From the NCBI GenBank assembly GCA_964600865.1, contig CAZRJP010000005.1:1-35813 (forward strand): a DNA stretch of 35,813 nucleotides, written 5' to 3'. Of the stretch, positions 6,328-35,188 are shown in pieces (the stretch's first letter is position 1; each line of letters opens with the position of its first letter). Both the position numbers and the translations under genes were made by a program. The notes below the pieces were generated by a model. That model did no database searches. It was given only the letters and a program-made list of their open reading frames with translations, and was not told the DNA's origin. The stretch comes from Candidatus Woesearchaeota archaeon (GTDB lineage: Archaea; Nanobdellota; Nanobdellia; Pacearchaeales; GW2011-AR1).

Positions 6328-6996
6328 ATGGATGATAGTGAATTAAAAAAATCGGTTCTTAAAACAGGAACGACAGTTTTAGGGATTGTATGTAAGGACG
6401 GAATTGTAATGGCTGCAGATAGACAGGTTACAGCAGGAAATATAGTAATGAATAAAAATGCCCCTAAGGTAGTTCAAGTTAATGATTATTTGGTTGTTTC
6501 TTGGACAGGAGGAGCTGCAGATGCTCAGAGACTTGGGAAATTAGTAGCTGCAGAACTTAAATTAAAACAATTAAAAGCTAGAAGTAGACCAACTGTAAAA
6601 CAAGCAGCTAATCTAACAGGAAGTATTTCTTACTCAAAAATAAGACAACCTTCTATGATTCCAACTATTGTAGGAACATTAGTTGCAGGATTTGATGAAA
6701 CTGGCTCAACTGCATTATATACTATAGAACCCGCAGGAGGAGTTTATAAGGTAGAGGATTATGATGCTAATTTTGGAAGTGGTATGCCTTATGTTTTAGG
6801 TTTATTAGAAAGACAATATAAAAAGGACATAACTACTAAAGAAGGAGTAGAACTTGCTAGAGAAGCTCTAAAATCCTCAACACAAAGAGATGTTGGAAGT
6901 GGTTATGGAATAGATGTATTTGTTATTAAAAAAGATGGAATTAAAAAAGTGGTGGGCCAAAAAATTGAGACTAGTTTTAAAGACGATAAAGAGTAA
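6328..6996 (+). CDS. psmB: Proteasome subunit beta
   Basis: 14-aa propeptide then KTG|TTVLGIVCKDGIVMAADRQVT with catalytic Thr, GSG and RDVGSG; next to aCPSF1, a known archaeal synteny. Confidence 0.95.
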   Translation: MDDSELKKSVLKTGTTVLGIVCKDGIVMAADRQVTAGNIVMNKNAPKVVQVNDYLVVSWTGGAADAQRLGKLVAAELKLKQLKARSRPTVKQAANLTGSISYSKIRQPSMIPTIVGTLVAGFDETGSTALYTIEPAGGVYKVEDYDANFGSGMPYVLGLLERQYKKDITTKEGVELAREALKSSTQRDVGSGYGIDVFVIKKDGIKKVVGQKIETSFKDDKE

Positions 6997-7026: not shown

Positions 7027-8910
7027 ATGGACATTCTAAAATCAATAAAAGATAAGTTACACGTAAGTATCACTGACGCAGGTTTTGAAGGAGCAAATAT
7101 TGTTATTTATACAGATAATGAAAGATTCTTTAAGAACAGTGAAGGAAAGATTAAGGAAATTGTTAATGATCTAAAGAAGAGAATTGAATTAAGAGCAGAT
7201 CAAAAAATTCTTCCAGATAAAGAAGATGTTAAGAAACAAATTAAAGAGATTGTTCCAGAAGATGCAGAGGTAACTAATATCTTTTTTGATCATCATAGAA
7301 GTATAGTTATTATTGAGGCAAAAAAACCTGGTTTAGTTATAGGAAAAAAAGGTAGCATTATAGAAGAAATAAGAAAGAAAACACTATGGGTTCCTCAAGT
7401 TCAAAGAAGCTCATCAATAAAGAGTAAAATAACAGATAATATTAGGGAAGTTTTATATGCAAATAATAATTACAGAAGAAGATTTTTAAATAAAATAGGT
7501 AAGAAAATCTACAAAGAATGGTCTCCAGATAAAGTAGATGAATGGGTAAGAGTTACAGTACTTGGTGGAGGAAGGCAAGTAGGAAGAAGCTGTTTTTTAT
7601 TACAAACACCTAATTCAAAAATATTATTAGATTGTGGTGTTGATGTTGCAACAAGTGGGCCAAAAAAATTCCCTTATCTTAATGTTCCAGAATTTGATAT
7701 AAAGCAATTAGATGCAGTGATTATATCTCATGCTCATTTGGATCATGTGGGATTAGTCCCTTACTTATATAAAATGGGATATGAGGGTCCAGTTTATATG
7801 ACTAAACCTACAAGGGATATAGCAGCATTATTATCTCTAGATTTTATTGGTGTAGCTTACAAACAAGCATCTAAACCAATATTTGGTTCCAAAGATGTTA
7901 AAGAAATGGTGAAACATTCTATTTGCCTTAATTATAGGGAAGTTACTGATGTAACACCAGATATAAGAATAACAATGTATAATTCTGGTCATTGTTTAGG
8001 AAGTTCTATTATACATATAAATATTGGAAATGGACTTCATAATTTAGTTTATACTGGAGACCATAAATATGGAAAGTCAAGATTATTAAATCCAGCAGTT
8101 GCAAATTACCCAAGGGTTGAAACAGTTATAACTGAGGCAACTTATGGGTCTAAAAAAGATACACTTCCTAAAAGACAAGAATCTGAAAAACAACTTTTAG
8201 ATTATGTTAGAAATACAATAGAGAAAAAAGGAAAAGTCTTAATCCCTGAATTAGGTTTAGGTCGTGCACAAGAGACAATGTTAATTTTAGAAAATGCAAT
8301 GAAAAAAGGCAAATTACCTAAGATACCAATTTATATTGATGGTATGATATGGGATATTAATGCGATTCATACAGCTTATCCTGATTTTTTAAATAGTAAA
8401 GTAAGAAATGATATTTTTAAAGGAAATAATCCTTTTATTTCAGATATTTTTTCAAGAGTAGCATCACATCAGGAAAGAAAGAATGTTATTGAAGGAGGAC
8501 CTTGTGTTGTTTTGGCAACTTCAGGAATGCTTGTAGGTGGAGCATCTGTAGAGTATTTTAGAGAGTTTGCAGATAATAAGAATAATTCAATTATCTTTGT
8601 ATGTTATCAGGGTGTAGGAAGTTTAGGAAGAAAAGTTCAAGAAGGTATAAAACAAGTTAAGATGAATGTTGATGGGAAAGAAAGAAAAATAGATATTAAT
8701 TTAGAAACTCATTCTATTAGTGGATTAACAGCTCATTCTGGAAGAAACCAATTAATAAATTTCTTTAATAATATGAGACCTAAGCCAAAAAGAGTTTTAG
8801 TAAATCATGGAGAGGTTTCTAAATGTCTTGATTTAGCATCATCTATTTATAAGATTAAAAGAATAGAAACAAATGTTCCTAGAAATCTTGAAACATTACG
8901 TTTGAAATAA
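7027..8910 (+). CDS. fttA: aCPSF1/FttA (KH-domain beta-CASP ribonuclease, transcription termination factor)
   Basis: N-terminal KH region (FEGANIVIYT, KPGLVIGKKG), LGGGRQVGRSC, SHAHLDHVG, SGHCLGS, ATSGML, SGLTAHS, NHGE and C-terminal PRNLETLRL. Confidence 0.93.
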   Translation: MDILKSIKDKLHVSITDAGFEGANIVIYTDNERFFKNSEGKIKEIVNDLKKRIELRADQKILPDKEDVKKQIKEIVPEDAEVTNIFFDHHRSIVIIEAKKPGLVIGKKGSIIEEIRKKTLWVPQVQRSSSIKSKITDNIREVLYANNNYRRRFLNKIGKKIYKEWSPDKVDEWVRVTVLGGGRQVGRSCFLLQTPNSKILLDCGVDVATSGPKKFPYLNVPEFDIKQLDAVIISHAHLDHVGLVPYLYKMGYEGPVYMTKPTRDIAALLSLDFIGVAYKQASKPIFGSKDVKEMVKHSICLNYREVTDVTPDIRITMYNSGHCLGSSIIHINIGNGLHNLVYTGDHKYGKSRLLNPAVANYPRVETVITEATYGSKKDTLPKRQESEKQLLDYVRNTIEKKGKVLIPELGLGRAQETMLILENAMKKGKLPKIPIYIDGMIWDINAIHTAYPDFLNSKVRNDIFKGNNPFISDIFSRVASHQERKNVIEGGPCVVLATSGMLVGGASVEYFREFADNKNNSIIFVCYQGVGSLGRKVQEGIKQVKMNVDGKERKIDINLETHSISGLTAHSGRNQLINFFNNMRPKPKRVLVNHGEVSKCLDLASSIYKIKRIETNVPRNLETLRLK

Positions 8911-8945
8911 TTAATTCTTTAGATATTTGAATACTTATTTAAGAG

Positions 8946-8977
8946 CCCCAAATTTGAGAGAGTTTCAAATTTGAGGG
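8946..8977. promoter_or_regulatory. Palindromic operator-like element or hairpin directly upstream of a TATA box
   Basis: ccc-caaatttga-gagagtt-tcaaatttg-a-ggg: a 9-bp inverted repeat containing two self-palindromic CAAATTTG boxes 17 bp apart. Confidence 0.6.
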
Positions 8978-8982
8978 AGTAA

Positions 8983-8990
8983 TTTATATA
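8983..8990 (+). promoter_or_regulatory. TATA box of the peptide-hydrolase-ThiF operon
   Basis: TTTATATA ending 21 bp before the ATG at 9012, the spacing expected for a leaderless archaeal mRNA. Confidence 0.7.
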
Positions 8991-9011
8991 GTTAAAAAAG
9001 AAATAAAGTAT

Positions 9012-9161
9012 ATGAAAAAACTTGAAATTAAAGTAAGGAAAGCTATTGAAGAGAATAGACCAAAGGAATCTGATGTTAAAATCTCAGATACTTATGAGGG
9101 TTTTAGAGTTGTAGAAGACATTGCTTACAACGGCCCGACAAGTATAAGATATTGGATGTAA
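9012..9161 (+). CDS. Unlisted 49-aa peptide, candidate RiPP precursor: MKKLEIKVRKAIEENRPKESDVKISDTYEGFRVVEDIAYNGPTSIRYWM
   Basis: Translated by hand, ATG 9012 to TAA 9159-9161; TATA box at leaderless spacing; 13-bp gap to the next gene; first gene of an operon encoding an RRE-ThiF enzyme. Confidence 0.8.
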   Translation: MKKLEIKVRKAIEENRPKESDVKISDTYEGFRVVEDIAYNGPTSIRYWM

Positions 9162-9174
9162 TTTTTTTTGAAAA

Positions 9175-9744
9175 ATGGCTGAATTAATTTTTATAGGAGA
9201 TACTCACGGATTTATTGATGATTTTGATAAGCAGAAAGAAATTATTAATGAAACAAATCCAGAATTTGTTTTAGATGAAAGAATGGAGGATATTACTTTA
9301 GATTCAGAGGACAAATTTATCTCTTTTTTAAAGAAAAAACAGGTATCTAATATGACTTCTTTTAAGGAAGTAGAAGATTTAGTAAAATTTTGTAAAAAAA
9401 GAAGAATAAAGTTAATTGGAATTGATTTCAGAAATTTTGGATTTGATAAGAATTTGCAGAATAAGATAAAAAAACAGATTAAATTAAATGAGGAAGAGGA
9501 AACTCTTTTGCAAGAAATATTAAGAAAAAGAGAAAAGAGATATTTGGAAAAAATAAGAGAATATTCTAAAAAAACTGACAATGCAATAGTGATAATTTTA
9601 GGTTCCTGGCATCTTAGAGAGGAGTCATTAATTATGAAAAAATTAGAAAAATATAAGGTTATTTTTCCCTCAGATAAAAAAGGAAATCTCTTAATCAAAC
9701 CTAATTCTAGAGATAAAATAATTTATAGTGAAAAGACAAAATGA
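9175..9744 (+). CDS. TraB/Tiki/ChaN/EreA-superfamily hydrolase, possible peptidase
   Basis: Motif series IFIGDTH, FVLDE, LIGID, RE and IILGSWHL matches the GxxH...E...D...R...GxxH layout of this superfamily; no signal peptide; ATGA overlap with the ThiF gene. Confidence 0.65.
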   Translation: MAELIFIGDTHGFIDDFDKQKEIINETNPEFVLDERMEDITLDSEDKFISFLKKKQVSNMTSFKEVEDLVKFCKKRRIKLIGIDFRNFGFDKNLQNKIKKQIKLNEEEETLLQEILRKREKRYLEKIREYSKKTDNAIVIILGSWHLREESLIMKKLEKYKVIFPSDKKGNLLIKPNSRDKIIYSEKTK

Positions 9745-10781
9745 CAAAGAAGTTAAAACTTACAGAATCAACTTATATATTAAAAGAAAAAGAGGATATT
9801 TATGATGTTATTTTCACTTCTACTAGAAGAATAAAAAAATTTAAGGTAGATAATCTTGTAAAGGAAGTAATAGATAAGTTAAATTCAGAAGAAGACCATG
9901 ACATAAGATCATTAACGAAAGAATTATCAGGTGATTATAAACCTAAACAGGTTTTTTCATGTATAAATTCATTAGAAAGAGAGGGAGTAATTAAAGAATA
10001 TGGAGATACACAAATTGATGAGAAATATAATAATCAACTTTTATTTATTGATGAATTAACTAATTCGTGGGATGAGACTCTTGAACTTCAAGAGAAGATA
10101 AATCAATCTAAAATAGGTGTTTTTGGTGTTGGAGGTATTGGGACATGGATCGTAAATGGATTATCTCAAATTGGAATTGGAGAAATAAAAATATCAGATC
10201 CAGACACAATTGAAAGAAGTAATCTTAATAGACAATTATTCTTCGATTCTTCAGATGTTGGAGATTATAAGGTAGATGTAATAAAATCAAAAGTGAAGGA
10301 TTCAAAAATAAGGACCTTTAAAAAATTTGTTTCAAAAAAAGAGAATTTAGAGGAAATAGTTTTTGATTTAGATTTTATAGTCAACTGTGCCGATTCACCT
10401 TCAATTGCAGATACAACAAAAATAGTGGATGAATATGCCACAAAATATAATGTGCCTTATTCCGTTGCAGGAGGATATAATCTTCATTTGGGGATGGTAG
10501 GGCCAATAATTGTTCCAGGGAAAACAGCAACTTTTGAAGATTTTCTGGAGTATCAAAAGTCGCAAGATCCCTTTAATGATTTAATAAAAATAAAAGATAT
10601 ATCTAAAACAGGAAATCTTGGGCCTATTGCAGGTGCCGTATCTAATATACAGGTAATGGAAATTTTTAAGTATTTAATTGGGAAAGGAACATTAAATCTA
10701 AATAGATTTGCAGAAATAGATTTCATGAATTTTAATGTTTCTTGGAGAGAATTTGCAAATAAAGGGAAAAGTAAAAATTAA
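9741..10781 (+). CDS. ThiF/E1-like adenylyltransferase with N-terminal RRE-like domain (MccB/PaaA architecture)
   Basis: GVFGVGGIG, DPDTIERSNLNRQLFF, GDYKVD, NCADSP and VGPIIVPG; an extra ~90-aa N-terminus of three beta strands then three helices ending CINSLEREGVI. Confidence 0.85.
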   Translation: MTKKLKLTESTYILKEKEDIYDVIFTSTRRIKKFKVDNLVKEVIDKLNSEEDHDIRSLTKELSGDYKPKQVFSCINSLEREGVIKEYGDTQIDEKYNNQLLFIDELTNSWDETLELQEKINQSKIGVFGVGGIGTWIVNGLSQIGIGEIKISDPDTIERSNLNRQLFFDSSDVGDYKVDVIKSKVKDSKIRTFKKFVSKKENLEEIVFDLDFIVNCADSPSIADTTKIVDEYATKYNVPYSVAGGYNLHLGMVGPIIVPGKTATFEDFLEYQKSQDPFNDLIKIKDISKTGNLGPIAGAVSNIQVMEIFKYLIGKGTLNLNRFAEIDFMNFNVSWREFANKGKSKN

Positions 10782-10785
10782 AAAA

Positions 10786-10959
10786 ATGACAAGAAAATTA
10801 AATATTGAGGATATTATTCTATTCTTCATATTTTGGATTGTAACTTCCATAATATGGGCAATTTGGTTAAATGGAATTTTGGTTCCTATAACCGGGTTCG
10901 GATCTGCAGTTATTTTTATGATTATGTCAGATTTGTTAAATTTTATTGATAAGAAATAA
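10786..10959 (+). CDS. 57-aa two-TM membrane protein (possible immunity/export accessory)
   Basis: Start re-assigned to the ATG at 10786, 4 bp after the ThiF stop; IILFFIFWIVTSIIWAIWL and ILVPITGFGSAVIFMIM. Confidence 0.65.
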   Translation: MTRKLNIEDIILFFIFWIVTSIIWAIWLNGILVPITGFGSAVIFMIMSDLLNFIDKK

Positions 10960-10965
10960 TCTTTT

Positions 10966-11155
10966 TCTTGAAACATTACGTTTGAAATAATTAATTCTTT
11001 AGATATTTTAATATTTATTTGAAAGAGTAATTTATATAGTTAAAAAAGAAATAAAGTATATGAAAATGGCTGAATTAATTTTTATAGGAGATACTCATGG
11101 ATTTATTAATGATTTTGATAAGCAGAAAGAAATTATTAATGAAACAAATCCAGAA
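10966..11155 (+). repeat. Copy 2 of the direct repeat, lacking net 32 bp (operator) and 157 bp (peptide gene)
   Basis: Offsets to copy 1 step from 2080 to 2048 to 1891 across the three blocks; junctions fall at short microhomologies (gag, tgaaaa). Confidence 0.92.
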
Positions 11156-11170
11156 GATGCCCTAAGATAA
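11060..11170 (+). pseudogene. Truncated duplicate of the hydrolase gene (MKMAELIFIGDTHGFINDFDKQKEIINETNPEDALR)
   Basis: 30 codons nearly identical to 9175-9264, then unrelated sequence and TAA at 11168-11170; keeps the duplicated TATA box. Confidence 0.85.
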
Positions 11171-11236
11171 AGGAATTTTATTTATCAGCTTTTTGGCTGA
11201 AACCAGAAAGGTTTTAAGTTCAGATATCTTTTTCAT
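11162..11236 (-). CDS. 24-aa ORF MKKISELKTFLVSAKKLINKIPLS, a small peptide or truncated gene remnant
   Basis: Minus-strand GAGGTG Shine-Dalgarno 5 nt before the ATG (cgaggtggcaaaATG); TAG at 11162-11164. Confidence 0.35.
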   Translation of the reverse strand: MKKISELKTFLVSAKKLINKIPLS

Positions 11237-11303
11237 TTTGCCACCTCGTTTTTTAGTTAAAATAAGGTGGCTTTCTTATTTTATAATGGTTTCACCAAAG
11301 CCA
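11188..11303 (-). other. Structured intergenic element with nested and alternative inverted repeats
   Basis: gccacct(11240-11246)/aggtggc(11265-11271); tggcttt(11268-11274)/aaagcca(11297-11303); imperfect gctttttggctgaaacca(11188-11205)/tggtttcaccaaagc(11287-11301). Confidence 0.45.
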
Positions 11304-11344
11304 TTTTTAGAAAGATTTATATATTAATTATCTTTTGTCATTTT

Positions 11345-12076
11345 ATGGTGAAAACAATAAATGAAAAGGCAGTAATAATAGGATTTGATGGACTTCATAG
11401 ATCAGGGAAAGTTACTCAAATAAAGTTACTTCAAAATTATTTGAACAAAAGAAATAACCCAAACATAGTTATTAGGGGAGATGGTATGAGGCCAGGAGAT
11501 GGTTCTAAATTTTACGATGTTCCTTCAAAATGGTGGAGAAAAAATTTCGATTATTTCTTACAAAAACCTAAATCCCTGGAAGAGAACATATATAAGTTAA
11601 ATCTTAAATATCAAAGACTTAATAGAGAAGCAAAACTTGTTAGAGATTCTATTTTACCCAAAAAAGTATCAAAAAGTAAGTCAAAACTTGGCACAATAAT
11701 TATGGACAGAACATTTGTATCTAGATATTTTACTATGAAACAATACGTCCCAGATATTTCTTTAAAATCTGCATTGGATGTCAAAAATCCAAAAAATGAT
11801 AAGAAGGTAGAGATTATTATTCCTGATAAAACATTTATTTTAGAAGGAAGCAAAAAATTATTATTGCAAAGATTAGAAGATTCTGAAAAAAACAAGGCAA
11901 AATTAAAGTTTAAGAAAAAAATACTTCATGATCATTACGACTTATTTAATTCTGTAGTTAAGGAGATGAAAAAAAGAGAAGATATTATCTGTCTAGATGC
12001 TTCACTATCTCCAGAAGAGATTCATAAAAAAGTGTTAAGAGAATATTCTAAATTGGAAAAAAGAATAATTAATTAA
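11345..12076 (+). CDS. Thymidylate-kinase-like P-loop kinase, divergent
   Basis: Start re-assigned to ATG 11345 (TTTATATA at 11316-11323). IIGFDGLHRSGKVTQ P-loop, IIMDRTFVS DR motif, IIPDKTFILE, LLQRL and LDASLSPEEIHKKV. Confidence 0.75.
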   Translation: MVKTINEKAVIIGFDGLHRSGKVTQIKLLQNYLNKRNNPNIVIRGDGMRPGDGSKFYDVPSKWWRKNFDYFLQKPKSLEENIYKLNLKYQRLNREAKLVRDSILPKKVSKSKSKLGTIIMDRTFVSRYFTMKQYVPDISLKSALDVKNPKNDKKVEIIIPDKTFILEGSKKLLLQRLEDSEKNKAKLKFKKKILHDHYDLFNSVVKEMKKREDIICLDASLSPEEIHKKVLREYSKLEKRIIN

Positions 12077-12086
12077 TTTTCTTTAT

Positions 12087-13268
12087 TCATTTTATTTCTT
12101 TTAGGTTTATTTTTATTTGATTGACTATCCTTTCAGGACAATATGATTTATTAAACCTTATTATCCCCTCTTTTTCTAATTCTTTCAAATATCTACTTAC
12201 ATTAGGAACTTTTATGCTTAGTTCTTCTGCTATCCTTACAATTGAATTTTTCCCATCGCATAATTTTATTATTTCAAGGATATTTTGGCTTCTTAATGAA
12301 CCGGATAAGTCTTTTATTTCTTTTTGAGATTTAACTGTTTTTATTTTTGAAAGGGAATCTTTATGACCCAGCTTCTTTTTAATTTTTTTAAAGTATTTAA
12401 CAAAATCTCTTGCAATACTTGTTTTATTTTTCTTTAATTTAATATCTTTTATGACCTTATTAAATATAGAATTGTAAAGATAAGCTATTTTTTCCTTACT
12501 TAATTTATCTTGAACTAAAATATCATATATTTCATCATATTTCATATTAATAGAGGGGATTAAACCTTCCTTATTTTTTAATCTTATTTTTTTAGAATAT
12601 AGAAAAACAGGTTTTTCCCTTTTTATTATTTTTTCATCTCTCATACCTTTTTTTAAATGTTCAAATAACATTTTTCTTCTTTCACTTAAATAAAAAAAGT
12701 CTGCAGATCTTTTTGTTTCTTCAGGATAAATTAGGTGATAAAAATTTGCTAAAAATAAGTCACCAGTAAGTGTTGTAGCATGATTCAATGTCCATCTGCC
12801 TTTAATTCTATCTTTTATGATAAGTTTGGAAGCTAGTTGATTATATTTGATTAACATTCCTTTTTCAATGAATTTTTTCCAAGCATCAGAAAACTTAACT
12901 ATATGCATGCTTTTCTCTTTAACTCCTAATGAAATTAATAGTCTCCTATAATTCTCTATTTTTTTATTTATTAATTCTTCAGAAGAAATATCATTTGTAA
13001 TTTCTTGTTTAAAAATTGGATTAAAGTACATAAAAGGGTCTAGAATTACAATGAAGAGTTTTGCACCTAAATCTGAAAATTCTTTTAATTTTATTGAAAA
13101 ATTTATTAATTCATAATTTAGATTAATTGGAGTTACAGATAAGTAGATTGTAGGAGGGTCTTTTTCTTTTTTAGGACAATTTAATCTTTCTTTAAAATAA
13201 CATAAATCTTTTTCATTTAAGTCTTCTATTCCTTCTAATAATTTTTTTACTTGTTTGTTGGTTATCAT
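12087..13268 (-). CDS. Degenerate tyrosyl-tRNA-synthetase-like domain fused to a C-terminal ArsR-type winged HTH; probable regulator
   Basis: TIYLSVTP...KLKEFSDLGAKLFIVILDP, YRRLLISLGV...HIVKFSD, ADFFYLSERRK and KPVFLY follow archaeal TyrRS topology but HIGH and KMSKS are absent; the C-terminus has SIVRIAEELSIKVPNVSRYLKELEKEGII. Confidence 0.7.
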   Translation of the reverse strand: MITNKQVKKLLEGIEDLNEKDLCYFKERLNCPKKEKDPPTIYLSVTPINLNYELINFSIKLKEFSDLGAKLFIVILDPFMYFNPIFKQEITNDISSEELINKKIENYRRLLISLGVKEKSMHIVKFSDAWKKFIEKGMLIKYNQLASKLIIKDRIKGRWTLNHATTLTGDLFLANFYHLIYPEETKRSADFFYLSERRKMLFEHLKKGMRDEKIIKREKPVFLYSKKIRLKNKEGLIPSINMKYDEIYDILVQDKLSKEKIAYLYNSIFNKVIKDIKLKKNKTSIARDFVKYFKKIKKKLGHKDSLSKIKTVKSQKEIKDLSGSLRSQNILEIIKLCDGKNSIVRIAEELSIKVPNVSRYLKELEKEGIIRFNKSYCPERIVNQIKINLKEIK

Positions 13269-13327
13269 TTTTTTATAATCATATTTTGAAATTTATTTAT
13301 TGTTTATGTTTTTTTGATAACGAAATT

Positions 13328-13368
13328 GTTTATATATATCATTATCTTATAACTTATAGTATATAAAC
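13328..13368. promoter_or_regulatory. Inverted pair of TATA boxes in a divergent intergenic region
   Basis: gtttatata (13328-13336) and tatataaac (13360-13368) form a perfect 9-bp inverted repeat, giving TTTATATA on each strand. Confidence 0.5.
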
Positions 13369-13377
13369 GTTTTGAAA

Positions 13378-13974
13378 ATGTCAAAATCAATATTAAAAAA
13401 AGCAGCAGAAAAAACTCTTTGTGATGTTTTAGGATTTGATGAAGGGAGAATTTATTATTTGCTATTAACTAAAAATAATAAAAGAATAAAGGAACAATTT
13501 AGTTATAGTAAAAGATATAGATTATTAAAATCATTATTTGTATCTGGAGCCATAGGAAAAATAAAGAAACAAGAAAATAGTTCCTTTAAGTATAAGCTTC
13601 TTCCACCAAGTTTTCTCCATTATAGTGATAAAAATAAAGAAATTATTGAATATCTTGAGGGATTATATTTTAAGAATTATCAAAATTTCATTCAAACAGA
13701 TTTTTCACAGATTATTGTAAAAGATGATAAAGGATTGGTTTTATTCTTGTTAAAGTATGTTATGAAAAAGAGTGCAGAAATTTTCGGGAATAATTTCAAT
13801 CTTTCTTGTTTAGGAAAAAATAAAACTAAGGTGCAATTCAATAAAACAAAACAATCAAGAAGAAGAGGGATAATAGATAAAAGGTTTAAATTTGAATTTT
13901 CTGCAATTAAAGGAAAAAATTCTGATGATTACATAGGATATATATCAAACAATGAATTTAATGATTCTAATTAA
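13378..13974 (+). CDS. Divergent TrmB-like protein
   Basis: VLGFDEGRIYYLLL, YRLLKSLFVSGAI and FKYKLLPP echo the TrmB N-terminal pattern with a shortened HTH; GIID near the C-terminus; ATG 13378 preferred over TTG 13372. Confidence 0.55.
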   Translation: MSKSILKKAAEKTLCDVLGFDEGRIYYLLLTKNNKRIKEQFSYSKRYRLLKSLFVSGAIGKIKKQENSSFKYKLLPPSFLHYSDKNKEIIEYLEGLYFKNYQNFIQTDFSQIIVKDDKGLVLFLLKYVMKKSAEIFGNNFNLSCLGKNKTKVQFNKTKQSRRRGIIDKRFKFEFSAIKGKNSDDYIGYISNNEFNDSN

Positions 13975-14010
13975 TTTTATAAACTAAATTATCCTTTCTT
14001 TAAAAAGAGA

Positions 14011-15003
14011 ATGAAACATACATTTAAGATAACCACTATTTTATTAGCAATGTTTTTAGTTACACAGATAATTGGAGTAGTTGTTGTTTCTTCAGAGCCA
14101 TTAAAAGTTCAAACAGAAATAAATGGGACTGTTCAACAAGTAACAAATCCTTATCTAAGTTGGATGGATGTTCCTGAACCAGAAACACAACAAGATTTTA
14201 CATTTGCATTTGGCCAATTAATAATGGCTTTTTTTATTGCAATATCTTTACTAATATTTTTAATGAAGTTTAAAATTGAGATCTTCCTTAGGCTATGGTT
14301 TTTTGCAGTTGTAACAATTGCATTATTTTTATCTATTGTATCTTTTGAAAAAATTATCCCTGTAATGATAGAACTCAAAACCGCGATGTTTATTGCACTT
14401 GCAATATCTTTGTCTTTAGCATATTTAAAAATATTCAAAAGAGATATTTTTATTCATAATATGACTGAATTATTAATATACCCAGGAATTGCAGCTATTT
14501 TTGTTCCTATACTAAACTTTTATACTATTATTATATTATTGATATTAATTTCTATTTATGACATATGGGCTGTGTGGCACTCTGGTGTAATGCAAAAAAT
14601 GGCAAAATATCAAATAGATAAAGTAAAGGTATTCTCAGGATTTTTTGTTCCATATATGTCTGACAAAGTAAAAACTAAAATTCAAAAAATTAAGAAATCT
14701 AAGAAAAAGAATAAAAAAGTAAAAGTAAATGTAGCTGTTCTTGGTGGAGGAGACATAATATTTCCAATAATAACAGCAGGAATCATGTATGGATTTTTTA
14801 GTAAAACACCTATTTTAGCAGCATCTTTAGTAATATTAGGGGCAACAAGTGGATTAGCATATTTGTTTTTCTTTGCAAAAAAGAGAAAATTCTATCCTGC
14901 TATGCCTTTTATAACAACAGGAATTTTAATTGGAATATTTTTAACATGGATAATTTATACTAAGATATTAGGATTCACATTAAATATATGGCCTTTTATT
15001 TAG
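14011..15003 (+). CDS. Presenilin/signal-peptide-peptidase family (A22) intramembrane aspartyl protease
   Basis: About 9 TM helices, ISIYDIWAVW (YD), LGGGDIIFP (GxGD) and YPAMPF (PAL-like). Confidence 0.9.
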   Translation: MKHTFKITTILLAMFLVTQIIGVVVVSSEPLKVQTEINGTVQQVTNPYLSWMDVPEPETQQDFTFAFGQLIMAFFIAISLLIFLMKFKIEIFLRLWFFAVVTIALFLSIVSFEKIIPVMIELKTAMFIALAISLSLAYLKIFKRDIFIHNMTELLIYPGIAAIFVPILNFYTIIILLILISIYDIWAVWHSGVMQKMAKYQIDKVKVFSGFFVPYMSDKVKTKIQKIKKSKKKNKKVKVNVAVLGGGDIIFPIITAGIMYGFFSKTPILAASLVILGATSGLAYLFFFAKKRKFYPAMPFITTGILIGIFLTWIIYTKILGFTLNIWPFI

Positions 15004-18668: not shown

Positions 18669-19076
18669 TTATTTTGGCTTTTTTATCTCTTTTAGGCTCT
18701 TTGTACCCTGTTTTAGTGTAGATGCTAGGTCAATTATATACTTACCTTCTTCCATTTTATACACTAATGGACGGTCTTTTCTAAATAAATTAACAATATC
18801 TATTTCAAATTTACCCTCTCCTATGGCTCTTACTGATTCAAAATCTAATATAACTGGGGCAGATGTATCTGTAATCCCTGCTATTTCTCTAATGTCTTTT
18901 TCAATCTTTTTCTTTTCTTTGTCTGGAATTTGTTTAGCAGGATTTTCCATTAATTTTTTGAACTTTTTGTCTTTTATATAAAAAAAGAAATGACTTTCAC
19001 ATTTACTACAACCTTCTAATAATTCTTTACTTCCTGCAGCATAAACTTTTCCGCAATGTACGCATTGGTGTGGCAT
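18669..19076 (-). CDS. oapC: Zn-ribbon protein OapC (DUF2072)
   Basis: MPHQCVHCGKVY...LLEGCSKCESHFFFY, ESVRAIGEGKFEID and EEGKYIIDL. Confidence 0.85.
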   Translation of the reverse strand: MPHQCVHCGKVYAAGSKELLEGCSKCESHFFFYIKDKKFKKLMENPAKQIPDKEKKKIEKDIREIAGITDTSAPVILDFESVRAIGEGKFEIDIVNLFRKDRPLVYKMEEGKYIIDLASTLKQGTKSLKEIKKPK

Positions 19077-19164
19077 TTTTCTTTTTTGTCTCTCTTTTAT
19101 TTTTTATATCAATTCAAAATATGAATTATATTAATTAATAAAGATGAATAATACTTATAAATTT

Positions 19165-19620
19165 TTACTTATTCAAGAACAATTCAATTTTCTTAGGATT
19201 TCTTTTTATCTCTTTAACAACTGTTGCAGGACCAATAATTGTAACAGCTCCTAAATCTCCATTAGAAAGAACATTAACAAGTTTGTTCCTCATTTTATTT
19301 AGCATATTTTTTTCATTGTTATTTTTATTATCAATAACTGCTAACTCAATTCCTTTAAAATTTTTAACATGGTCAATCATTGCCATAGTATCTCCAATAA
19401 GTCTTGTTTCTTCTTCAGGTTTTAGTCTTCCCTGTAAAATTAAAATATTGCTTCCAAGAATTATATCTAATATCTTTTTAATTCTTCCATTACTGTCTAA
19501 ACCTCTTATTTCTGAGAAAGGCATAAATCTTATAGAAAATCCCTTTATTTTCTTAGGTTTTTTCTTCTTGGACTTTTTCTTTTTAGAACGTTTTTTCTTT
19601 GATTTTTTTTTCTTACTCAT
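19165..19620 (-). CDS. oapB: DUF2073 protein OapB with Lys-rich N-terminal tail
   Basis: RIKKILD...ILILQGRLKPEEETRLI...TM...FKGIE...TIIGPA; lies between oapA and oapC. Confidence 0.85.
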   Translation of the reverse strand: MSKKKKSKKKRSKKKKSKKKKPKKIKGFSIRFMPFSEIRGLDSNGRIKKILDIILGSNILILQGRLKPEEETRLIGDTMAMIDHVKNFKGIELAVIDNKNNNEKNMLNKMRNKLVNVLSNGDLGAVTIIGPATVVKEIKRNPKKIELFLNK

Positions 19621-28648: not shown

Positions 28649-29365
28649 TTACCATACTTTAATTCTTAAAAAACCAGGTTTAATATTAGCAGATTCATCT
28701 ACATATTGAATAGGTAACTCCTTAACATAAATGTTTTCCTTCACATCTTCGTCATTTGTTTTAATAGTACCTCCATCACTATATTCAAAGCTAAGACCAA
28801 AATTATCTCCACTAGGAATATCTAACTTTTCTTTTATATTATTGTACTCTTTTTTTGATTCAGTGATATTATTAATTATTTCTTCTATCTTAACTTCAAA
28901 AGGATGTTTGGTTGTTCTTAATAAAATAATTTCATAATCAGATTCATCTGGTTCCTCACAATTTAATCTATCTATATCTTCCTCAAATTGTTTAGAATAA
29001 TATACTTTTACAATCTCTGCCCCACTTCTTTCAAATTCAACTTCATTATACATAGAATGCTCTAAAATTTCAGGGACATTTTTTCCTACGTCTTTAACAA
29101 TTGCATTCAATTCTCCAACACCATTAATAGGTATTTTAACACAGTCATCTGCTTTTTTATCAAATTCAATTGTTGCTGTAGTAACATAATCAGAGACCTC
29201 GCTCTTTAAACCTTCTTTAACTGAATCTAGTAATTCTTGTTTGTCTCTTCCTTGTTTTGCTACGGGTTCAGTTATTGAAAAAAGGAATATTAAGAAAGTG
29301 ATGAATATAACAAAAGATAACATCATTCCAACATGTGAGCCTTTTTTATTTTTTATCTTAATCAT
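28649..29365 (-). CDS. Pilin-like protein with class III signal peptide
   Basis: NKKG|SHVGMMLSFVIFITFLIFLFSI, ending in a beta strand FLRIKVW. Confidence 0.72.
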   Translation of the reverse strand: MIKIKNKKGSHVGMMLSFVIFITFLIFLFSITEPVAKQGRDKQELLDSVKEGLKSEVSDYVTTATIEFDKKADDCVKIPINGVGELNAIVKDVGKNVPEILEHSMYNEVEFERSGAEIVKVYYSKQFEEDIDRLNCEEPDESDYEIILLRTTKHPFEVKIEEIINNITESKKEYNNIKEKLDIPSGDNFGLSFEYSDGGTIKTNDEDVKENIYVKELPIQYVDESANIKPGFLRIKVW

Positions 29366-29395
29366 TTTAATATTAAATATTTTAAATTATTAAAT

Positions 29396-30226
29396 TTATC
29401 CTCCAAAAAATGCATTTGCTCCTGCAGATATTAAAAAAGACATAACAACCAATGCAAAGGAATGTTTTATCCCTGCCTTAATGTTCCCTGCAGATAATTT
29501 TCCTATTGTTAGTCCAGAAAAAAATCCTTGGACTAAAAGAAGATATAGAAATGCATTAGATATTTTTGATTGATCTATTGCTTGTCCACCTCCAAGTCCA
29601 AATCCCCCACCAACATCTGCAATACCTGAAATCATTGGGAGAATTCTAAATTGCATAACTAGTATTATAATTATGAATACAAAAAAGATAATATATCCTT
29701 GAACTACAAGTGTTTGTATTGTAGCCTTTCTTTCTTTTTTTAGTTTTTCAGAGGTACTAACTGCATTTGCAACACTTTCAAGAATAACTCCAATATCTCC
29801 TCCAGCTCTCTCAGCCTGCCCAATTAAAGTTAATGCTCTTGAAATAGATTTATTATTAACATCTTTTGAAAAGGTCTTTAGTGCTTTATTTAATGGTATA
29901 CCTAATTGGATTTGATTAGCTAATTTATTAATATTCTCAGTTAAAACACCATATGGCCTATCTTTAACATTTAATATACTTTTACTAATAGGTGTACCTG
30001 TTTTTACACTTTCTACAAGATTTCTTGCAAATTCAAGAAACATCTCTTCTTTTTCATTTGCAACAATTGTTTCTCTTATAAGAGAAAAAACAAAAGGACT
30101 TAAAGCAATTAAAACACCAATTCCAATAAAAAAGAAAAACATAGCAGTTCCAAAAAATAAAAAAGAAAAACCTGCAACAGCTAAACCGAATATTATTCCA
30201 ATAAGATGACTAGCTTTTAACCTCAT
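29396..30226 (-). CDS. Type IV pilus membrane platform protein (T2SSF / TadC / ArlJ-like)
   Basis: EEMFLEFARNLVESVKTGTP, YGVL, QIQLGIPLNKAL, AERAGGDIGVILE and multiple TM helices. Confidence 0.9.
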   Translation of the reverse strand: MRLKASHLIGIIFGLAVAGFSFLFFGTAMFFFFIGIGVLIALSPFVFSLIRETIVANEKEEMFLEFARNLVESVKTGTPISKSILNVKDRPYGVLTENINKLANQIQLGIPLNKALKTFSKDVNNKSISRALTLIGQAERAGGDIGVILESVANAVSTSEKLKKERKATIQTLVVQGYIIFFVFIIIILVMQFRILPMISGIADVGGGFGLGGGQAIDQSKISNAFLYLLLVQGFFSGLTIGKLSAGNIKAGIKHSFALVVMSFLISAGANAFFGG

Positions 30227-30256
30227 TTTATTATATATTCGAAGATTTCCAAGTTT

Positions 30257-31483
30257 TTAAAACTTCATAGTATAACCTAATTCTAGGTTTAATCCATTGT
30301 CCTTCCCAAAAATAGTATTTTCCATTATGTCTTCTTTGTTATATGCTAAATCAAAAAATATGCCTTTTTTATCACTATTATGCACTTTCCCTTTAACTCC
30401 AACTGAAAGACCCTTTATATTTGCATTCTCAAAATTTAGATAATTATAAAACCTCATTGAGAAATTATCTTTTTTTATCCCTCCATATTCTGCACCAATT
30501 CTAATATTTTTTACCTCTCCTCCCATTGGATCTGCATCAAATCCAAAATTAATATCTATGGGTAAATCACTATGTGGATTCACTTTTGAATTAACATCAA
30601 AATAACTCCCTTTTGAAGTCATATAAAGATTAATAATCGGCCAAGTCATCTTCATATCACCAATATTAAAAGAACTAAATTTATGTTCTCTATTATCTTG
30701 ACCTCCAGATAAATAACTAAATATGCTCGCATAACTTTCATAAAAACATGAAGATAGTAATTCTGAAAAAAGAACTTGATTGTAATACCCTTTTTTATCT
30801 AATTCTATGCCTTTTTCATTTAATTTAGTGATGTAAGAATTAACATCATCTCTAGAAGTTACATCCTCCTCTAATCCAGAAAATAGAATATAAGTTAAAT
30901 CCTGCATTTTATTTGTCAATAAAAATATATTATCATAAAAGGTGTTTTTATTCTTAAAAGACTTCTCCCACTGATTATAAGATGCATACTCTGCTTGATT
31001 TAAGCCATCTAAATGAATCTTAATTGACTCTTCCTCATTCATATCATTAAGAATATCATTTGGAAGTTTTTCATCTATCATAGGCCATAAGCCTCTTTCT
31101 AAATCAATTTCAGTATTAAATCCTTTTTTAAATCCATATTTTCTAGGAATAAATAAATGAGCATTTTCATGTTGATAATATGCTATCATCTCTGAGAAAT
31201 ATAACCCCATTATAACATCACCTAATCTTCCTTTCCAATCTCCTTCACCATTAAACTTTCTGAATTTATCATTACAATTAGATGTAACTTGATAAAGAGA
31301 GTTCCAAAAATTAGTATTAGAATCATAATTATCAAATGGATAATCAAAATTAACCATAATTTCTCTTTCTAATGATTTTTGTTCTATATTCTGTTCTTCT
31401 GCTAATGAATTTTTTGAAAGACCTAGTAATCCACTAGCCCCAATTAAGCCATAAGCAAGTAAGTTCTTCATATTATTTGTCAT
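30257..31483 (-). CDS. Secreted hypothetical protein with HExxH motif and beta-strand-rich C-terminus ending in Phe
   Basis: Sec-like signal ending SLA|EE, YYQHENAH, alternating-pattern strands and terminal LNLELGYTMKF. Confidence 0.7.
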   Translation of the reverse strand: MTNNMKNLLAYGLIGASGLLGLSKNSLAEEQNIEQKSLEREIMVNFDYPFDNYDSNTNFWNSLYQVTSNCNDKFRKFNGEGDWKGRLGDVIMGLYFSEMIAYYQHENAHLFIPRKYGFKKGFNTEIDLERGLWPMIDEKLPNDILNDMNEEESIKIHLDGLNQAEYASYNQWEKSFKNKNTFYDNIFLLTNKMQDLTYILFSGLEEDVTSRDDVNSYITKLNEKGIELDKKGYYNQVLFSELLSSCFYESYASIFSYLSGGQDNREHKFSSFNIGDMKMTWPIINLYMTSKGSYFDVNSKVNPHSDLPIDINFGFDADPMGGEVKNIRIGAEYGGIKKDNFSMRFYNYLNFENANIKGLSVGVKGKVHNSDKKGIFFDLAYNKEDIMENTIFGKDNGLNLELGYTMKF

Positions 31484-31514
31484 AACTCTGGAGATACAAC
31501 AAAACTTATAAACA

Positions 31515-32876
31515 TTATGTTTTAGATTTCAATTGTAAGAATATTAAGAATAATATATTAACAAAACTAACTCCTAAAACCATAACTAAAGAAATCATAC
31601 TTGCACTTAATGAAATACCTAATCCTGAAACTCCCATCATTATCAATAATAACATTAATATCATTGGAGCAGCTATAACTACACTAATATAAATATCCAT
31701 AAAAGTCTCTGCAGATTTTGTTTTCTTTTCTTTCTCTATTCTATAATCAAATAATAAACTCTGTGCACGTTTCTCAAAGAATTCTGATAAATCTCCTCCT
31801 GAGGTAATTGTGGTTGCAAGACCATCGAATAATTCCGCAAGTTTTCTACTAGGATTATTAAATGCAGCTTTTCTTAATGCACTAACTAAATCCTTACCAA
31901 AGACATTAACTTCATTAAGTAATTTAACAAACTCTTTTTGTAATGTAGGATAATCATTTGTTTTTACCATTATTTTAAAGATATTAGTTGGTTCTATCAT
32001 TGATTCTGAAATAGATGCCATATTAATAGTTGCAAAAGGCAATTCTTGAGATATCCTATTTTCAATTGATTTTTTCTCTATTCTTGGATAAAAATAAGTC
32101 AGAAAAAATGTTAAAATTGGAATAACAATCAATATCCATCCAAAACTAAAGATTCTTGATGAGATACTTTCATTTGCAACTGTAATAAAAGGATACATAA
32201 CTCCAAAACTAAAAAACAAGAAGAATGTAAGTATAATAAAACTAGCAATAAACGAAATAAAAGTATTAAATAAGATAATAGAAACATAACTTTTTGTTAA
32301 AAATTGCATATTCCCTTTAATTAGGTTCATTTTTAGTTCCTTGAAAAATCCTTTTTTTAATAATTTTTCAGAAACTACTGAAAAAAGTTTATTTGCACTT
32401 TGAACATATTTGCTTGCTTTTTTCTTCTTTTTTTTAACGTTCTCTTTTTGGTCTTTTTCTCTTCTTTTTTTTATTCTTCTTAAAGTGTCTCTTTCAAATT
32501 CTTCTATTTTTATTTTTGCTTTTCTACTTTTTATTTTCTTTTTAGATTTAAATTTTTTCTTAGGATGTTTCTTTTTACTTTTTTTAGGCTTCCTTTTACT
32601 AGATTTTTTACTTTTAGATTTTTTAATTGGTTTAAAAGAAGGTTTGGATTTACCTGGACCTAGAGAAATACCTGAAATATCTTTTTTCATACTATTATTT
32701 ATTTTTTTAACAGAATCTTTTAACTTATTAATTTGAGATTGAATCATTCTTTTTTCTTCAGAGTCAGCTGTTTTTTCAAATTCTTTTTTAAGATTAGATA
32801 TTTCTTTAACTGCTTTTCTTTCTTTAGAAATTTTTATGTTGATTTTTGAGAATTTATCTCTTTTTCTTTTTATCAT
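31515..32876 (-). CDS. Type IV pilus membrane platform protein (T2SSF / TadC / ArlJ-like) with Lys-rich N-terminal extension
   Basis: ISQELPFATINMASI, FGKDLVSAL, PSRKLAELFDGLATTITSGGDLSEFF and DIYISVVIAAP. Confidence 0.9.
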   Translation of the reverse strand: MIKRKRDKFSKINIKISKERKAVKEISNLKKEFEKTADSEEKRMIQSQINKLKDSVKKINNSMKKDISGISLGPGKSKPSFKPIKKSKSKKSSKRKPKKSKKKHPKKKFKSKKKIKSRKAKIKIEEFERDTLRRIKKRREKDQKENVKKKKKKASKYVQSANKLFSVVSEKLLKKGFFKELKMNLIKGNMQFLTKSYVSIILFNTFISFIASFIILTFFLFFSFGVMYPFITVANESISSRIFSFGWILIVIPILTFFLTYFYPRIEKKSIENRISQELPFATINMASISESMIEPTNIFKIMVKTNDYPTLQKEFVKLLNEVNVFGKDLVSALRKAAFNNPSRKLAELFDGLATTITSGGDLSEFFEKRAQSLLFDYRIEKEKKTKSAETFMDIYISVVIAAPMILMLLLIMMGVSGLGISLSASMISLVMVLGVSFVNILFLIFLQLKSKT

Positions 32877-33084
32877 TTTTTAATATTTTATTGATATTAT
32901 CTTGGATTTCTAACATTAGTTTTTTCATTTGTTTAAATTCTTTATAATCTTTTTTCTTATAAGCATCCTTCATTTTTACTTGCGCTTTATCTAATGAATT
33001 TACTAATTGTTTTAAAAATGATCCATCTTTTTCAAATTTTAATCCATTTTCTTCTTTATTTAGCTCTTCACTCTCTTTTATCAT
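32854..33084 (-). CDS. Small helical hypothetical protein
   Basis: 76-aa coiled-coil-like ORF between the ATPase and the platform gene. Confidence 0.6.
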   Translation of the reverse strand: MIKESEELNKEENGLKFEKDGSFLKQLVNSLDKAQVKMKDAYKKKDYKEFKQMKKLMLEIQDNINKILKNDKKKKR

Positions 33085-33120
33085 GTTTGTGAATAGAAAT
33101 AGAGATTATTAAAGATTTTG

Positions 33121-34665: not shown

Positions 34666-34666
34666 T

Positions 34667-35188
34667 TTAATTTATTGTAACATCTACTTGTGTTTTACTT
34701 TGCTCATTTGCTCCTTTATTCTCCACAAATATATTATATGGGGTAGATGCCTTACTTATGGTTTTTAATTTTTGTTCAGAGTTAAACGTTAAATCATAAT
34801 TATAAGCTCTTTTTATTTTAACAGTATATAAATCACCTAATTTTTCTGTTTTAATAATTAAATTACCTTCAGAAATTTCTTCTCCAACATCACTATAAAG
34901 ATATCTTCCAGTTAACTCAAATTCTATTTTATCTTCTTTAGAATTAATTTTTAAAGAACCCTTTTTAATAGAAACCTCTAATTTTCTCTTATTTCCAGCA
35001 ACATTTCCAGTAACACTTCCTATTGTTTCATCTAAAGATTTCATAAGTTCAATTGATTGATCAACATATGCCTTATCTTGCATTTCCTCTATTTTTGGTT
35101 TAGCAAACCCTAAAACAGCTCCTATTAAAATAAATGCAATAAGAGTGTAAATAACTGTTTCTATCCAAACTTGGCCTCTTTTTAACAT
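34667..35188 (-). CDS. Pilin-like protein with class III signal peptide
   Basis: MLKRG|QVWIETVIYTLIAFILIGAVL with Glu at +5. Confidence 0.82.
   Translation of the reverse strand: MLKRGQVWIETVIYTLIAFILIGAVLGFAKPKIEEMQDKAYVDQSIELMKSLDETIGSVTGNVAGNKRKLEVSIKKGSLKINSKEDKIEFELTGRYLYSDVGEEISEGNLIIKTEKLGDLYTVKIKRAYNYDLTFNSEQKLKTISKASTPYNIFVENKGANEQSKTQVDVTIN

Follow-up and report, generated by a model that had tools for sequence, protein, structure and literature searches.

The stretch of DNA analysed here, 35,813 nucleotides from a Candidatus Woesearchaeota archaeon (contig CAZRJP010000005.1 of assembly GCA_964600865.1, referred to throughout as the window), forms contig 5 of a genome of 0.67 Mb with a completeness of 87%. 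It carries a compact cassette in which three forward-strand genes follow one another in the order peptide, hydrolase and ThiF, encoding a 49-residue peptide, a 189-residue protein with a TIKI/TraB-like hydrolase fold, and a 346-residue ThiF-like adenylyltransferase; a 13-nucleotide spacer separates the peptide and hydrolase genes, and there is a 4-nucleotide overlap between the hydrolase gene and that for ThiF (Table 1). A preliminary description of this DNA had drawn attention to a Glu-Glu-Asn (EEN) tripeptide within the peptide, resembling the core from which pantocin A is made. We judge this eye-catching tripeptide to be noise and place the conserved signal at the C-terminus, and with moderate confidence we regard the open reading frame (ORF) as encoding the precursor, and hence the substrate, of a minimal ribosomal-peptide modification cassette that acts on the C-terminal end.

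The peptide ORF was found as it had been described, with its ATG and TAA codons, translation and E13-E14-N15 all in place. A single-sequence search with the peptide matched only itself (one candidate of one), an Atlas search gave no usable match, and the family emerged through synteny and afterwards through a profile. Relatives of the ThiF protein with 60-63% identity are present in two of 60 related genomes, and in one of these two (locus L004) the same pair of enzyme genes comes after a 56-residue ORF ending in ...GGTSIQYWM. When one genome per species was scanned with an alignment of the three ThiF proteins, 38 loci were obtained, and in 32 of these a short forward-strand ORF ending in YWM and a stop codon lies directly 5' of the cassette enzymes, in the same position and orientation. 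Four of the six loci lacking the ORF have no upstream DNA (L014, L018, L028 and L029); the others are L024 and L047. A profile built from 33 peptides (the 32 loci and the window) retrieved 243 proteins at E<=0.01, none of which has a Pfam family or any name beyond 'hypothetical'; a search of all representatives of 1.84 billion clusters gave 177 at E<=0.001. Among the matches listed (150 representatives) the lengths are 39-84 residues, save for one protein of 1604 residues (P0318, matched in six stretches at profile positions 18-40), which was left out of the counts as low-complexity.

The pattern of nucleotide change is that of a coding sequence. At 33 loci, the final 22 codons differ between pairs by 0.309 per site at codon position 1, 0.233 at position 2 and 0.491 at position 3, and the invariant Gly(-20) and Thr(-7), numbered from the C-terminus, are each specified by four different codons. 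Because of this third-position excess and the use of several codons for invariant residues, we conclude that the peptide gene is under selection at the level of the protein, and the short ORF is almost certainly a real gene. The likely promoter of the cassette is a TATA-like box read from the sequence, and A/T-rich elements of this kind are located 20-35 nucleotides 5' of the ATG in 13 of the 13 loci displayed; they are weak evidence because the window has a G+C content of only 27%. An oligo-T terminator 3' of the peptide gene (8 T in the window) was considered as a means of attenuation and rejected, as it is present in only 8 of 34 loci.

Alignment of the family peptides, which are 44-57 residues long and end in YWM, divides them into three parts: an N-terminal motif, a linker variable in both length and sequence, and a C-terminal block (Table 1). 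Within the N-terminal motif M1 is invariant in the syntenic peptides, and L4 and E5 are at least 90% conserved. The N-terminus had been described as basic and amphipathic, which is true of the window copy but not of the family, whose consensus is acidic. We propose these nine residues as a candidate leader bound by the enzyme's N-terminal domain, by analogy with IndA and IndF (PMC12150305). The aromatic C-terminal tail, also pointed out previously, is the truly conserved part of the peptide. Y28, G30, T43, Y47, W48 and M49 are invariant in the syntenic alignment, and YWM is followed directly by the stop codon in 242 of the 249 pooled short family proteins. Counted over the 244 peptides that end in WM, Thr is present at -7 in 243, Tyr at -3 in 242, Tyr at -22 in 240, and Gly at -20 in 238. 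We propose the C-terminal block as the candidate core and the carboxylate of its Met as the putative site of adenylation. One of the two options raised in the preliminary description, a C-terminal core (YNGPTSIRYWM) activated at its carboxylate, is thus supported at the level of sequence by the invariant YWM-stop, the kinship of the enzyme with MccB and PaaA, and the precedent of bacterial RRE-ThiF enzymes, in which a ThiF-like domain is fused to a recognition element (RRE) for ribosomally made peptides that are modified after translation (RiPPs).

The other option, a pantocin A-like core at EEN, does not survive the same comparison. When the short ORFs 5' of ThiF homologues were aligned, as had been suggested, EEN proved variable and the C-terminus invariant. 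The tripeptide is present in one of the 33 syntenic peptides (that of the window), in 4 of 120 family proteins among the matches listed, and in 11 of the 249 pooled proteins, at differing positions, and the closest homologue from the same genus has EEG where the window has EEN. The probability of encountering EEN in a 49-mer with the composition of the window ORFs is about 0.015-0.017, in keeping with the earlier caution that it could occur by chance in a proteome rich in Glu and Asn. Because it is rare, differently placed among family members and situated in the variable linker, EEN in the window peptide is on sequence grounds a matter of chance.

The 346-residue enzyme matches the Pfam ThiF family (PF00899, E 1.6e-42) over residues 115-340. 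A profile search of the PDB with 31 ThiF proteins ranked MccB (E 9.6e-29, query residues 62-310) and PaaA (1.7e-26) ahead of Uba1, ThiF and MoeB. The AlphaFold2 model has a mean predicted local distance difference test (pLDDT) score of 89.5, and its residues 1-90 form strands followed by three helices. In Foldseek comparisons PaaA (5ff5) was matched with E 1.6e-20 over 350 columns and MccB over 354-369 columns, both with a template-modelling score of about 0.73, whereas ThiF and MoeB cover only about 260 columns. The N-terminal domain of the model aligns with the N-terminal domains of both PaaA and MccB, and we assign it as a putative RRE-type domain by this likeness of fold, the Pfam winged-helix match being only E 0.059. 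Across the 31 sequences G129, G131, G132 and G134 (the GxGGxG motif), D153, R164, Q165, K177, D218 and Y246 are invariant; the ATP- and Mg-binding residues align with the motifs of MccB, Y246 corresponds to the MccB-type Tyr, and the Cys pair (CxxC) of MccB is absent at the aligned place. By sequence and predicted structure the enzyme is a member of the MccB/PaaA-like clade, and the peptide is probably its substrate. Between loci the enzymes are 47-66% identical.

The hydrolase is the second constant element. Its AlphaFold2 model has a pLDDT of 93.9, and although a Foldseek search with this model returned nothing at E<=0.001 (best E 3e-3), in a VIA-align comparison with 48,161 chains the seven best matches were without exception members of the TIKI/ChaN/erythromycin-esterase superfamily, with Z scores of 8.4-11.3: HopBA1 (Z 11.3, root-mean-square deviation 3.8, 163 residues aligned), ChaN (11.3, 3.7, 165), 2qgm (9.1), EreC (9.0), 2rad (8.8), RRSP (8.6) and PMT (8.4). 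Of 30 family members, 11 match TraB_PrgY_gumN at E<=0.1 and eight match Cofac_haem_bdg. T10, H11, E35, D84, R119 and H146 are invariant in the 30 sequences, and by motif order and spacing H11, E35 and H146 parallel the catalytic His and Glu residues given for RRSP and the Ere enzymes in the relevant sections of PMC6254334. The model and these residues suggest that the protein is probably catalytically active, hydrolysing peptide or ester bonds. Its simplest role would be that of a leader peptidase, which we put forward tentatively by analogy, the alternative being an esterase acting on a lactone product; in graspetide loci, as far as the pertinent passages of PMC8939145 go, Tiki/TraB peptidases are predicted to be processing enzymes, and an Ere-like enzyme has been suggested to be a modifier or a resistance factor. 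A 164-residue ORF with a TTG start (9204-9698, reverse strand) lies antisense to the hydrolase gene and was judged non-coding; antisense ORFs over the ThiF and hydrolase genes recur at other loci as shadows of the conserved sense frame.

The peptide, hydrolase and ThiF genes are the only ORFs that recur across the 38 loci, with the hydrolase present in 35. The usual order is that of the window, the exceptions being L012 (peptide, ThiF, hydrolase) and L045, where the hydrolase gene is on the opposite strand, and no conserved gene was found 3' of ThiF across the loci. The record titles are those of Woese-, Pace- or Nanoarchaeota, save for three that are generic ('archaeon') and two that name bacteria, which we guess to be the result of mis-binning. 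When the phylum was sampled evenly, four of 400 genomes besides G000, from three families, had the ThiF family, and a scan of viral contigs with the ThiF alignment gave 51 pattern matches and no relative among them. In the window the cassette lies within an island of about 5.1 kb between the FttA/aCPSF1 termination factor gene (7027-8910) and a presenilin-like peptidase gene; in nine of nine loci from the same genus, a homologue of window 14011-15003 comes after FttA at a distance of about 0-640 nucleotides and the island genes are absent, and in a genome of that genus that does have the cassette it lies on another contig. Decayed copies are also seen: at L024 (547-1251) the hydrolase gene is frameshifted, its TH motif is changed to TP, and there is no YWM ORF, at L039 and L041 ThiF is split over two frames, and at L047 (2190-2612) only a C-terminal fragment of ThiF remains. 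Because it sits in an inserted island, is found in four of 400 genomes and decays in some, the cassette is an accessory, mobile and sporadic trait of DPANN archaea. Its adjacency to a proteasome gene in the window was considered as a functional link and rejected, as no neighbour recurs at the other loci.

At three loci (L027, L036 and L037) and at a metagenome locus (L059) a fourth gene, coding for a protein of about 300 residues, is inserted between the peptide and hydrolase genes in constant order, and the hydrolase is of a more divergent type; neither the window cassette nor most of the others have this gene. Its products share conserved YDxxxDxH and [DE]DLIDL motifs. One of three proteins matches Pfam PF00348, weakly (E 2e-4; 21.1 bits, the cut-off being 27), the matches to FPPS and OPPS in the PDB are weak too (E 0.23-0.45), and 28 of 30 language-model neighbours in the Atlas come from polyprenyl_synt clusters (score 0.94). 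A metagenome scan with the alignment of these proteins found at least one locus. These likenesses suggest that the peptide probably undergoes a further modification in this sub-lineage, which may be prenylation. As a separate observation, a second putative peptide cluster is located 5' of the four-gene cassette at L059 (3-1692), with a radical S-adenosylmethionine (radical-SAM)/SPASM-like fragment, a 221-residue HExxH protein and a 61-residue Cys-rich peptide that begins with MSLENLE..., a beginning like the MENLE of YWM peptides.

A plausible course of events can be proposed by analogy with characterized enzymes. The MEKLE-type N-terminal motif would dock on the winged-helix (RRE) domain of a dimeric ThiF-like enzyme, and the variable linker would allow the 22-residue tail to reach the adenylation site. 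There the free carboxylate of the C-terminal Met (Met49) would be adenylated with ATP and Mg, a step that we consider probable. The acyl-adenylate would then be captured by a nucleophile, most likely an intramolecular one, so as to give a C-terminal ring; we hold the ring itself less firmly, as a possibility somewhat short of even. The candidate nucleophiles, all nearly invariant, are the hydroxyls of Thr(-7) and Tyr(-3) and the indole nitrogen of Trp(-2), and capture by an outside amine is possible. Lys(-4) was rejected as a universal nucleophile, since this position is occupied by Lys in only 191 of 244 peptides (the remainder being 28 Arg, 16 Met, 4 Gln, 3 Val, 1 Ile and 1 Cys), and by Arg in the window. 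The co-translated TIKI-like hydrolase would cleave the peptide to remove the leader, or otherwise hydrolyse the product, and in the four-gene sub-lineage the polyprenyl-synthase-like enzyme would add a further modification. The product might serve as a signal or as an antagonist. A bolder picture, which is attractive and on present evidence rather unlikely, is that of a first archaeal family of ThiF-dependent modified peptides, with a novel C-terminal ring (for example a Thr(-7)-Met lactone, or an aryl or indolyl acyl link), prenylation of Trp in some lineages and release by a TIKI-fold enzyme, acting as a signal or weapon in contact between symbiont and host.

Complex prediction with two copies of ThiF and one peptide gave a score of 0.48 (0.50, 0.48 and 0.46 in separate runs), with the best of three controls at 0.01, contact agreement of at least 79% and partner pLDDT of at least 51, the interface itself not being returned. 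Of 157 solved complexes 116 pass the mark set for this method, as do 2 of 215 mismatched pairs; at scores of 0.60 or below, only 18 of the 157 reach it, together with both of the passing mismatches. The prediction lends weak support to the pairing of peptide and enzyme, and the pass may reflect likeness to the solved MccB-MccA complexes. Several observations weigh against a precursor modified at its C-terminus. No recurring transporter or immunity gene was found at the 38 loci or among the 38 window ORFs scanned, unlike in the ind, enf and mcc clusters, which have an exporter, as do paa and grc according to the cluster descriptions in PMC12150305, PMC12250964 and PMC12596934. The 22-residue block is nearly invariant while the enzymes are only 47-66% identical, which is unusual for a secreted antimicrobial and would suit a cofactor-like or tag-like role equally well. 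A C-terminal Met is not among the published substrates compared (Asn, Ile, Glu/Cys), and by atom count a link from Trp(-2) to the C-terminus would give a strained 9-membered ring, so that an indolylamide of the IndF type is doubtful. As for the hydrolase, its match to TraB_PrgY_gumN (E 1.1e-3, 19.3 bits) falls below the gathering cut-off of 26.8, and the first Glu of the 2His/2Glu set is unconserved, position 9, two residues before H11, being variable.

The alternative that best withstands the evidence is one in which the peptide is the scaffold or precursor of a cofactor, its invariant C-terminal residues being converted into a small molecule that is cut off by the TIKI-like hydrolase and kept within the cell, as in the mycofactocin, PQQ (pyrroloquinoline quinone) and pearlin pathways. 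The extreme conservation of the C-terminal block in the face of enzymes diverged to 47% identity is what would be expected, as is a hydrolase that is a constant partner in a cassette with no recurring exporter. Presence in four of 400 genomes of the phylum, location in an inserted island and decay in some genomes are odd for a cofactor, however, and no redox or radical-SAM partner recurs; we regard this explanation as unlikely, if deserving of attention. Less likely again is that the peptide is a small protein tag, which an E1-like enzyme joins through its C-terminus to lysines of target proteins, in the manner of Pup or SAMP, and which the TIKI-like enzyme de-conjugates. An E1-type adenylation domain with intact catalytic residues, an exactly invariant C-terminus, conservation at both ends of the peptide, and the proximity of a proteasome subunit gene in the window are all compatible with this. 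The peptide lacks a Gly-Gly end, however, and its 44-57 residues are too few for a beta-grasp fold, the enzyme has the putative RRE-type N-terminal domain of the peptide-modifying MccB and PaaA, and four loci include a polyprenyl-synthase-like tailoring gene; moreover, neither the proteasome adjacency (unconserved at other loci) nor the sporadic distribution fits a tag.

It is also conceivable, with a probability that we put slightly lower still, that the peptide is no substrate at all but a small partner, in regulation or structure, for two enzymes acting elsewhere. The weak support from complex prediction leaves some room for this, but the combination of an RRE domain, an N-terminal motif and an invariant free C-terminus is the signature of substrate peptides in this clade of enzymes, as set out in PMC12150305 and in the corresponding sections of PMC12250964, and at L024 the peptide and hydrolase decay together. 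A peptide-nucleotide of the microcin C type, with a C-terminal phosphoramidate bearing AMP or CMP, is highly improbable in spite of MccB being the best sequence match in the PDB, as such chemistry depends on the amide in the side chain of an Asn at the C-terminus (according to the account of MccB in PMC12596934), Met is last in 242 of 249 family proteins, and no genes like MccC, MccD, MccE or MccF are present in the window. Hardly any weight remains with a pantocin-like pathway, in which an internal Glu-Glu-Asn would be cyclised by a PaaA-like enzyme and leader and follower removed: EEN at residues 13-15 and the standing of PaaA as one of the two closest solved relatives speak for it, but the tripeptide is rare, differs in position and lies in a variable linker, the same-genus homologue lacks it, and, in keeping with the earlier remark that neither a PaaB-type oxygenase nor a transporter is nearby, no 2-oxoglutarate (2OG)-Fe(II) oxygenase or transporter family was detected among the 38 window ORFs scanned.

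Table 1. Features of the peptide cassette and its surroundings. Coordinates refer to the window, except those of the polyprenyl-synthase-like gene, which refer to the loci named.
Feature	Coordinates	Strand	Remarks
Island, ~5.1 kb	8911..14010	.	between FttA/aCPSF1 gene and presenilin-like peptidase gene
TATA-like box TTTATATA	8983..8990	+	read from sequence; ~26 nt upstream of peptide ATG; likely promoter
Precursor peptide gene, 49 aa (putative precursor)	9012..9161	+	ATG start, TAA stop; synteny, family profile, third-codon-position excess
N-terminal motif, residues 1-9	9012..9038	+	family consensus MEKLEKTLE, window MKKLEIKVR
E13-E14-N15	9048..9056	+	within variable linker; not conserved
C-terminal block, residues 28-49	9093..9158	+	Y-x-G-[LF]-x-x-[VI]-E-[DE]-x-x-Y-x-G-x-T-S-I-[KR]-Y-W-M
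Minimal TIKI/TraB/ChaN/EreA-fold hydrolase, 189 aa (predicted)	9175..9744	+	AlphaFold2 fold, invariant residues, sub-threshold Pfam match
RRE-ThiF-like adenylyltransferase, 346 aa (predicted)	9741..10781	+	winged-helix ~residues 1-95; adenylation domain ~110-340
Strongly hydrophobic ORF, 57 aa	10786..10959	+	5 nt after ThiF stop; no Pfam family
Degenerate second copy, 190 nt	10966..11155	+	direct repeat of 8886-9018 + 9172-9264, 93-98% identical
Polyprenyl-synthase-like gene	L027 1471-2352; L036 1435-2370; L037 1453-2385; L059 2857-3741		

The surroundings of the island are archaeal, and include Mre11/Rad50-like genes and a proteasome subunit gene (6328-6996) next to FttA/aCPSF1. Besides the cassette, the island carries a P-loop kinase-like gene (11267-12076), a gene for a 393-residue winged-helix protein on the reverse strand (12087-13268) and a 200-residue ORF without a family (13372-13974); identification of the latter as McbB was rejected as noise (E 0.004, 16.8 bits against a cut-off of 65). 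The 57-residue hydrophobic ORF that follows ThiF likely encodes two membrane helices, judging from its sequence, and is present only in the window copy and not after ThiF at other loci; a local helper role in immunity or export is conceivable, as is no role at all. The degenerate second copy repeats the final 25 nucleotides of FttA, the promoter region of the cassette and the hydrolase gene up to codon 31, but is without the body of the peptide ORF, the gap lying between two short GAAAA-type repeats; a remnant ORF of 36 residues is located at 11060-11170. Contigs from two DNA runs bridge the peptide-bearing copy (8989-9201) and the second-copy junction (11037-11092, run X1). In its layout the repeat looks like the remainder of a tandem duplication, or of repeated insertion at the 3' end of FttA. 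Further along the window, the origin-associated OapC and OapB genes (18669-19620, reverse strand; Pfam E 1e-19 and 1.5e-15) suggest that the chromosomal replication origin may be close by, and a reverse-strand cluster at 28649-35777, with a T2SSE-type ATPase, two T2SSF-type membrane proteins and several small ORFs without a family, probably codes for a type IV pilus or an archaellum-like apparatus.

ThiF-like peptide-modifying enzymes have so far been studied in bacteria, and the global mining behind IndF was confined to bacterial RefSeq (PMC12150305); the DPANN cassette would extend the class to archaea. The main texts of the 2025 reviews of the field contain none of the strings 'archae', 'TraB' and 'Tiki' (only the first two were looked for in PMC12596934, and supplements were left aside), and 'ThiF' is not in the main text of a 2025 survey of archaeal RiPPs. 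Literature searches combining ThiF-like, RRE and archaea, or ThiF, TraB, archaea and peptide, returned no description of the cassette, supplements again aside, a search on the tail motif gave nothing relevant, and the pairing of a TIKI-like hydrolase with a ThiF-like enzyme is undescribed in the literature searched. The features that appear to be new are the range of archaeal hosts, the family to which the precursor belongs, the pairing with a TIKI-fold hydrolase, the missing exporter and, at some loci, the polyprenyl-synthase-like gene. The pairing matters also for the TIKI-fold enzymes, whose natural peptide substrates are poorly known, and with a 49-residue peptide and two enzymes predicted to be soluble the system is small and easily testable. 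The archaea that carry the cassette have genomes of about 0.7 Mb and depend on hosts, so that a peptide system which is dispensable and moves horizontally may have to do with how they interact with those hosts or with rivals.

Comparison with known systems separates the cassette from several that it superficially resembles. The ubiquitin-like, SAMP and ThiS carriers have a Gly-Gly-ended beta-grasp fold, unlike the archaeal peptides of 44-57 residues that end in YWM; the absence of both Gly-Gly and MccA's C-terminal Asn, noted previously, follows from the Met with which the window peptide ends. In the ComX/ComQ system of Bacillus a short precursor has an essential Trp in its C-terminal part, and no ThiF-like enzyme is known from it. 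The resemblance is to the four loci in which a polyprenyl-synthase-like gene stands beside the peptide gene, but the polyprenyl-synthase likeness is weak and the gene is missing from the window cassette. With the TIKI/TraB/PrgY/ChaN/erythromycin-esterase superfamily the hydrolase shares the predicted fold, a His-Glu pair and a second His (H11, E35 and H146), and it differs in consisting of the 189-residue domain alone, with no membrane or targeting parts. Superfamily members hydrolyse peptide or ester bonds, and PrgY is active on a peptide pheromone.

Among enzymes that act on peptides, MccB and PaaA are the closest solved structures to the archaeal ThiF-like protein in both sequence and fold, the N-terminal peptide-binding domain included. 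The substrates are different, as the archaeal peptide has neither MccA's Asn at the C-terminus nor a conserved EEN as in PaaP, and so are the partners, there being no MccC-F, PaaB or PaaC; the enzyme itself is without the Cys pair at the CxxC place. The system is accordingly not of the pantocin type (EEN is unconserved, and oxygenase and exporter are missing) and not of the microcin C type (no C-terminal Asn). The chemistry open to such enzymes is varied: in the published accounts, as far as the sections on each enzyme go, MccB converts a C-terminal Asn to a phosphoramidate (PMC12596934), GrcB forms a Glu-Cys thiolactone (PMC12150305; PMC12250964; PMC12596934), and EnfB converts a WWIVI tail to a cyclic imide, or to an amide with free amines (PMC12250964). 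The enterofaecin system (EnfA/EnfB) is similar in that a leader motif is needed, and in that its ATP-binding Arg and Lys and its Mg-binding Asp correspond to R164, K177 and D218 here; it differs in having, by the same account (PMC12250964), four transporter genes, regulators and a precursor of 21 residues, whereas the archaeal precursor has 44-57 residues, no transporter and a hydrolase as constant partner.

The ind cluster of Streptococcus pneumoniae, with its IndA precursor, IndF RRE-ThiF enzyme, IndP peptidase and transporter (PMC12150305), has the same essential composition of a short precursor, an RRE-ThiF fusion and a peptidase, together with a Trp-containing aromatic and hydrophobic tail. 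Here, by contrast, the host is archaeal, the tail is TSIKYWM where IndA has NWYFI, so that Trp stands only a single residue from the end, an M16 peptidase is replaced by a TIKI/TraB-fold hydrolase, no transporter is present, and the conserved C-terminal block, at 22 residues, is much longer. IndF adenylates the C-terminal Ile of the NWYFI tail and joins it to the N1 of Trp, and has been modelled as a dimer in which the leader is bound by the RRE of one subunit and the tail occupies the partner subunit's active site (PMC12150305). The free carboxylate of IndA is adenylated, and the archaeal peptide likewise presents a free carboxylate tail for which we infer the same activation. Bacterial RRE-ThiF enzymes are reported to adenylate the C-termini of precursors with aromatic and hydrophobic motifs such as NWYFI and WWIVI (PMC12150305, and the sections on tail motifs in PMC12250964), and by analogy with them the archaeal cassette most likely works like the bacterial ThiF-like RiPP clusters.

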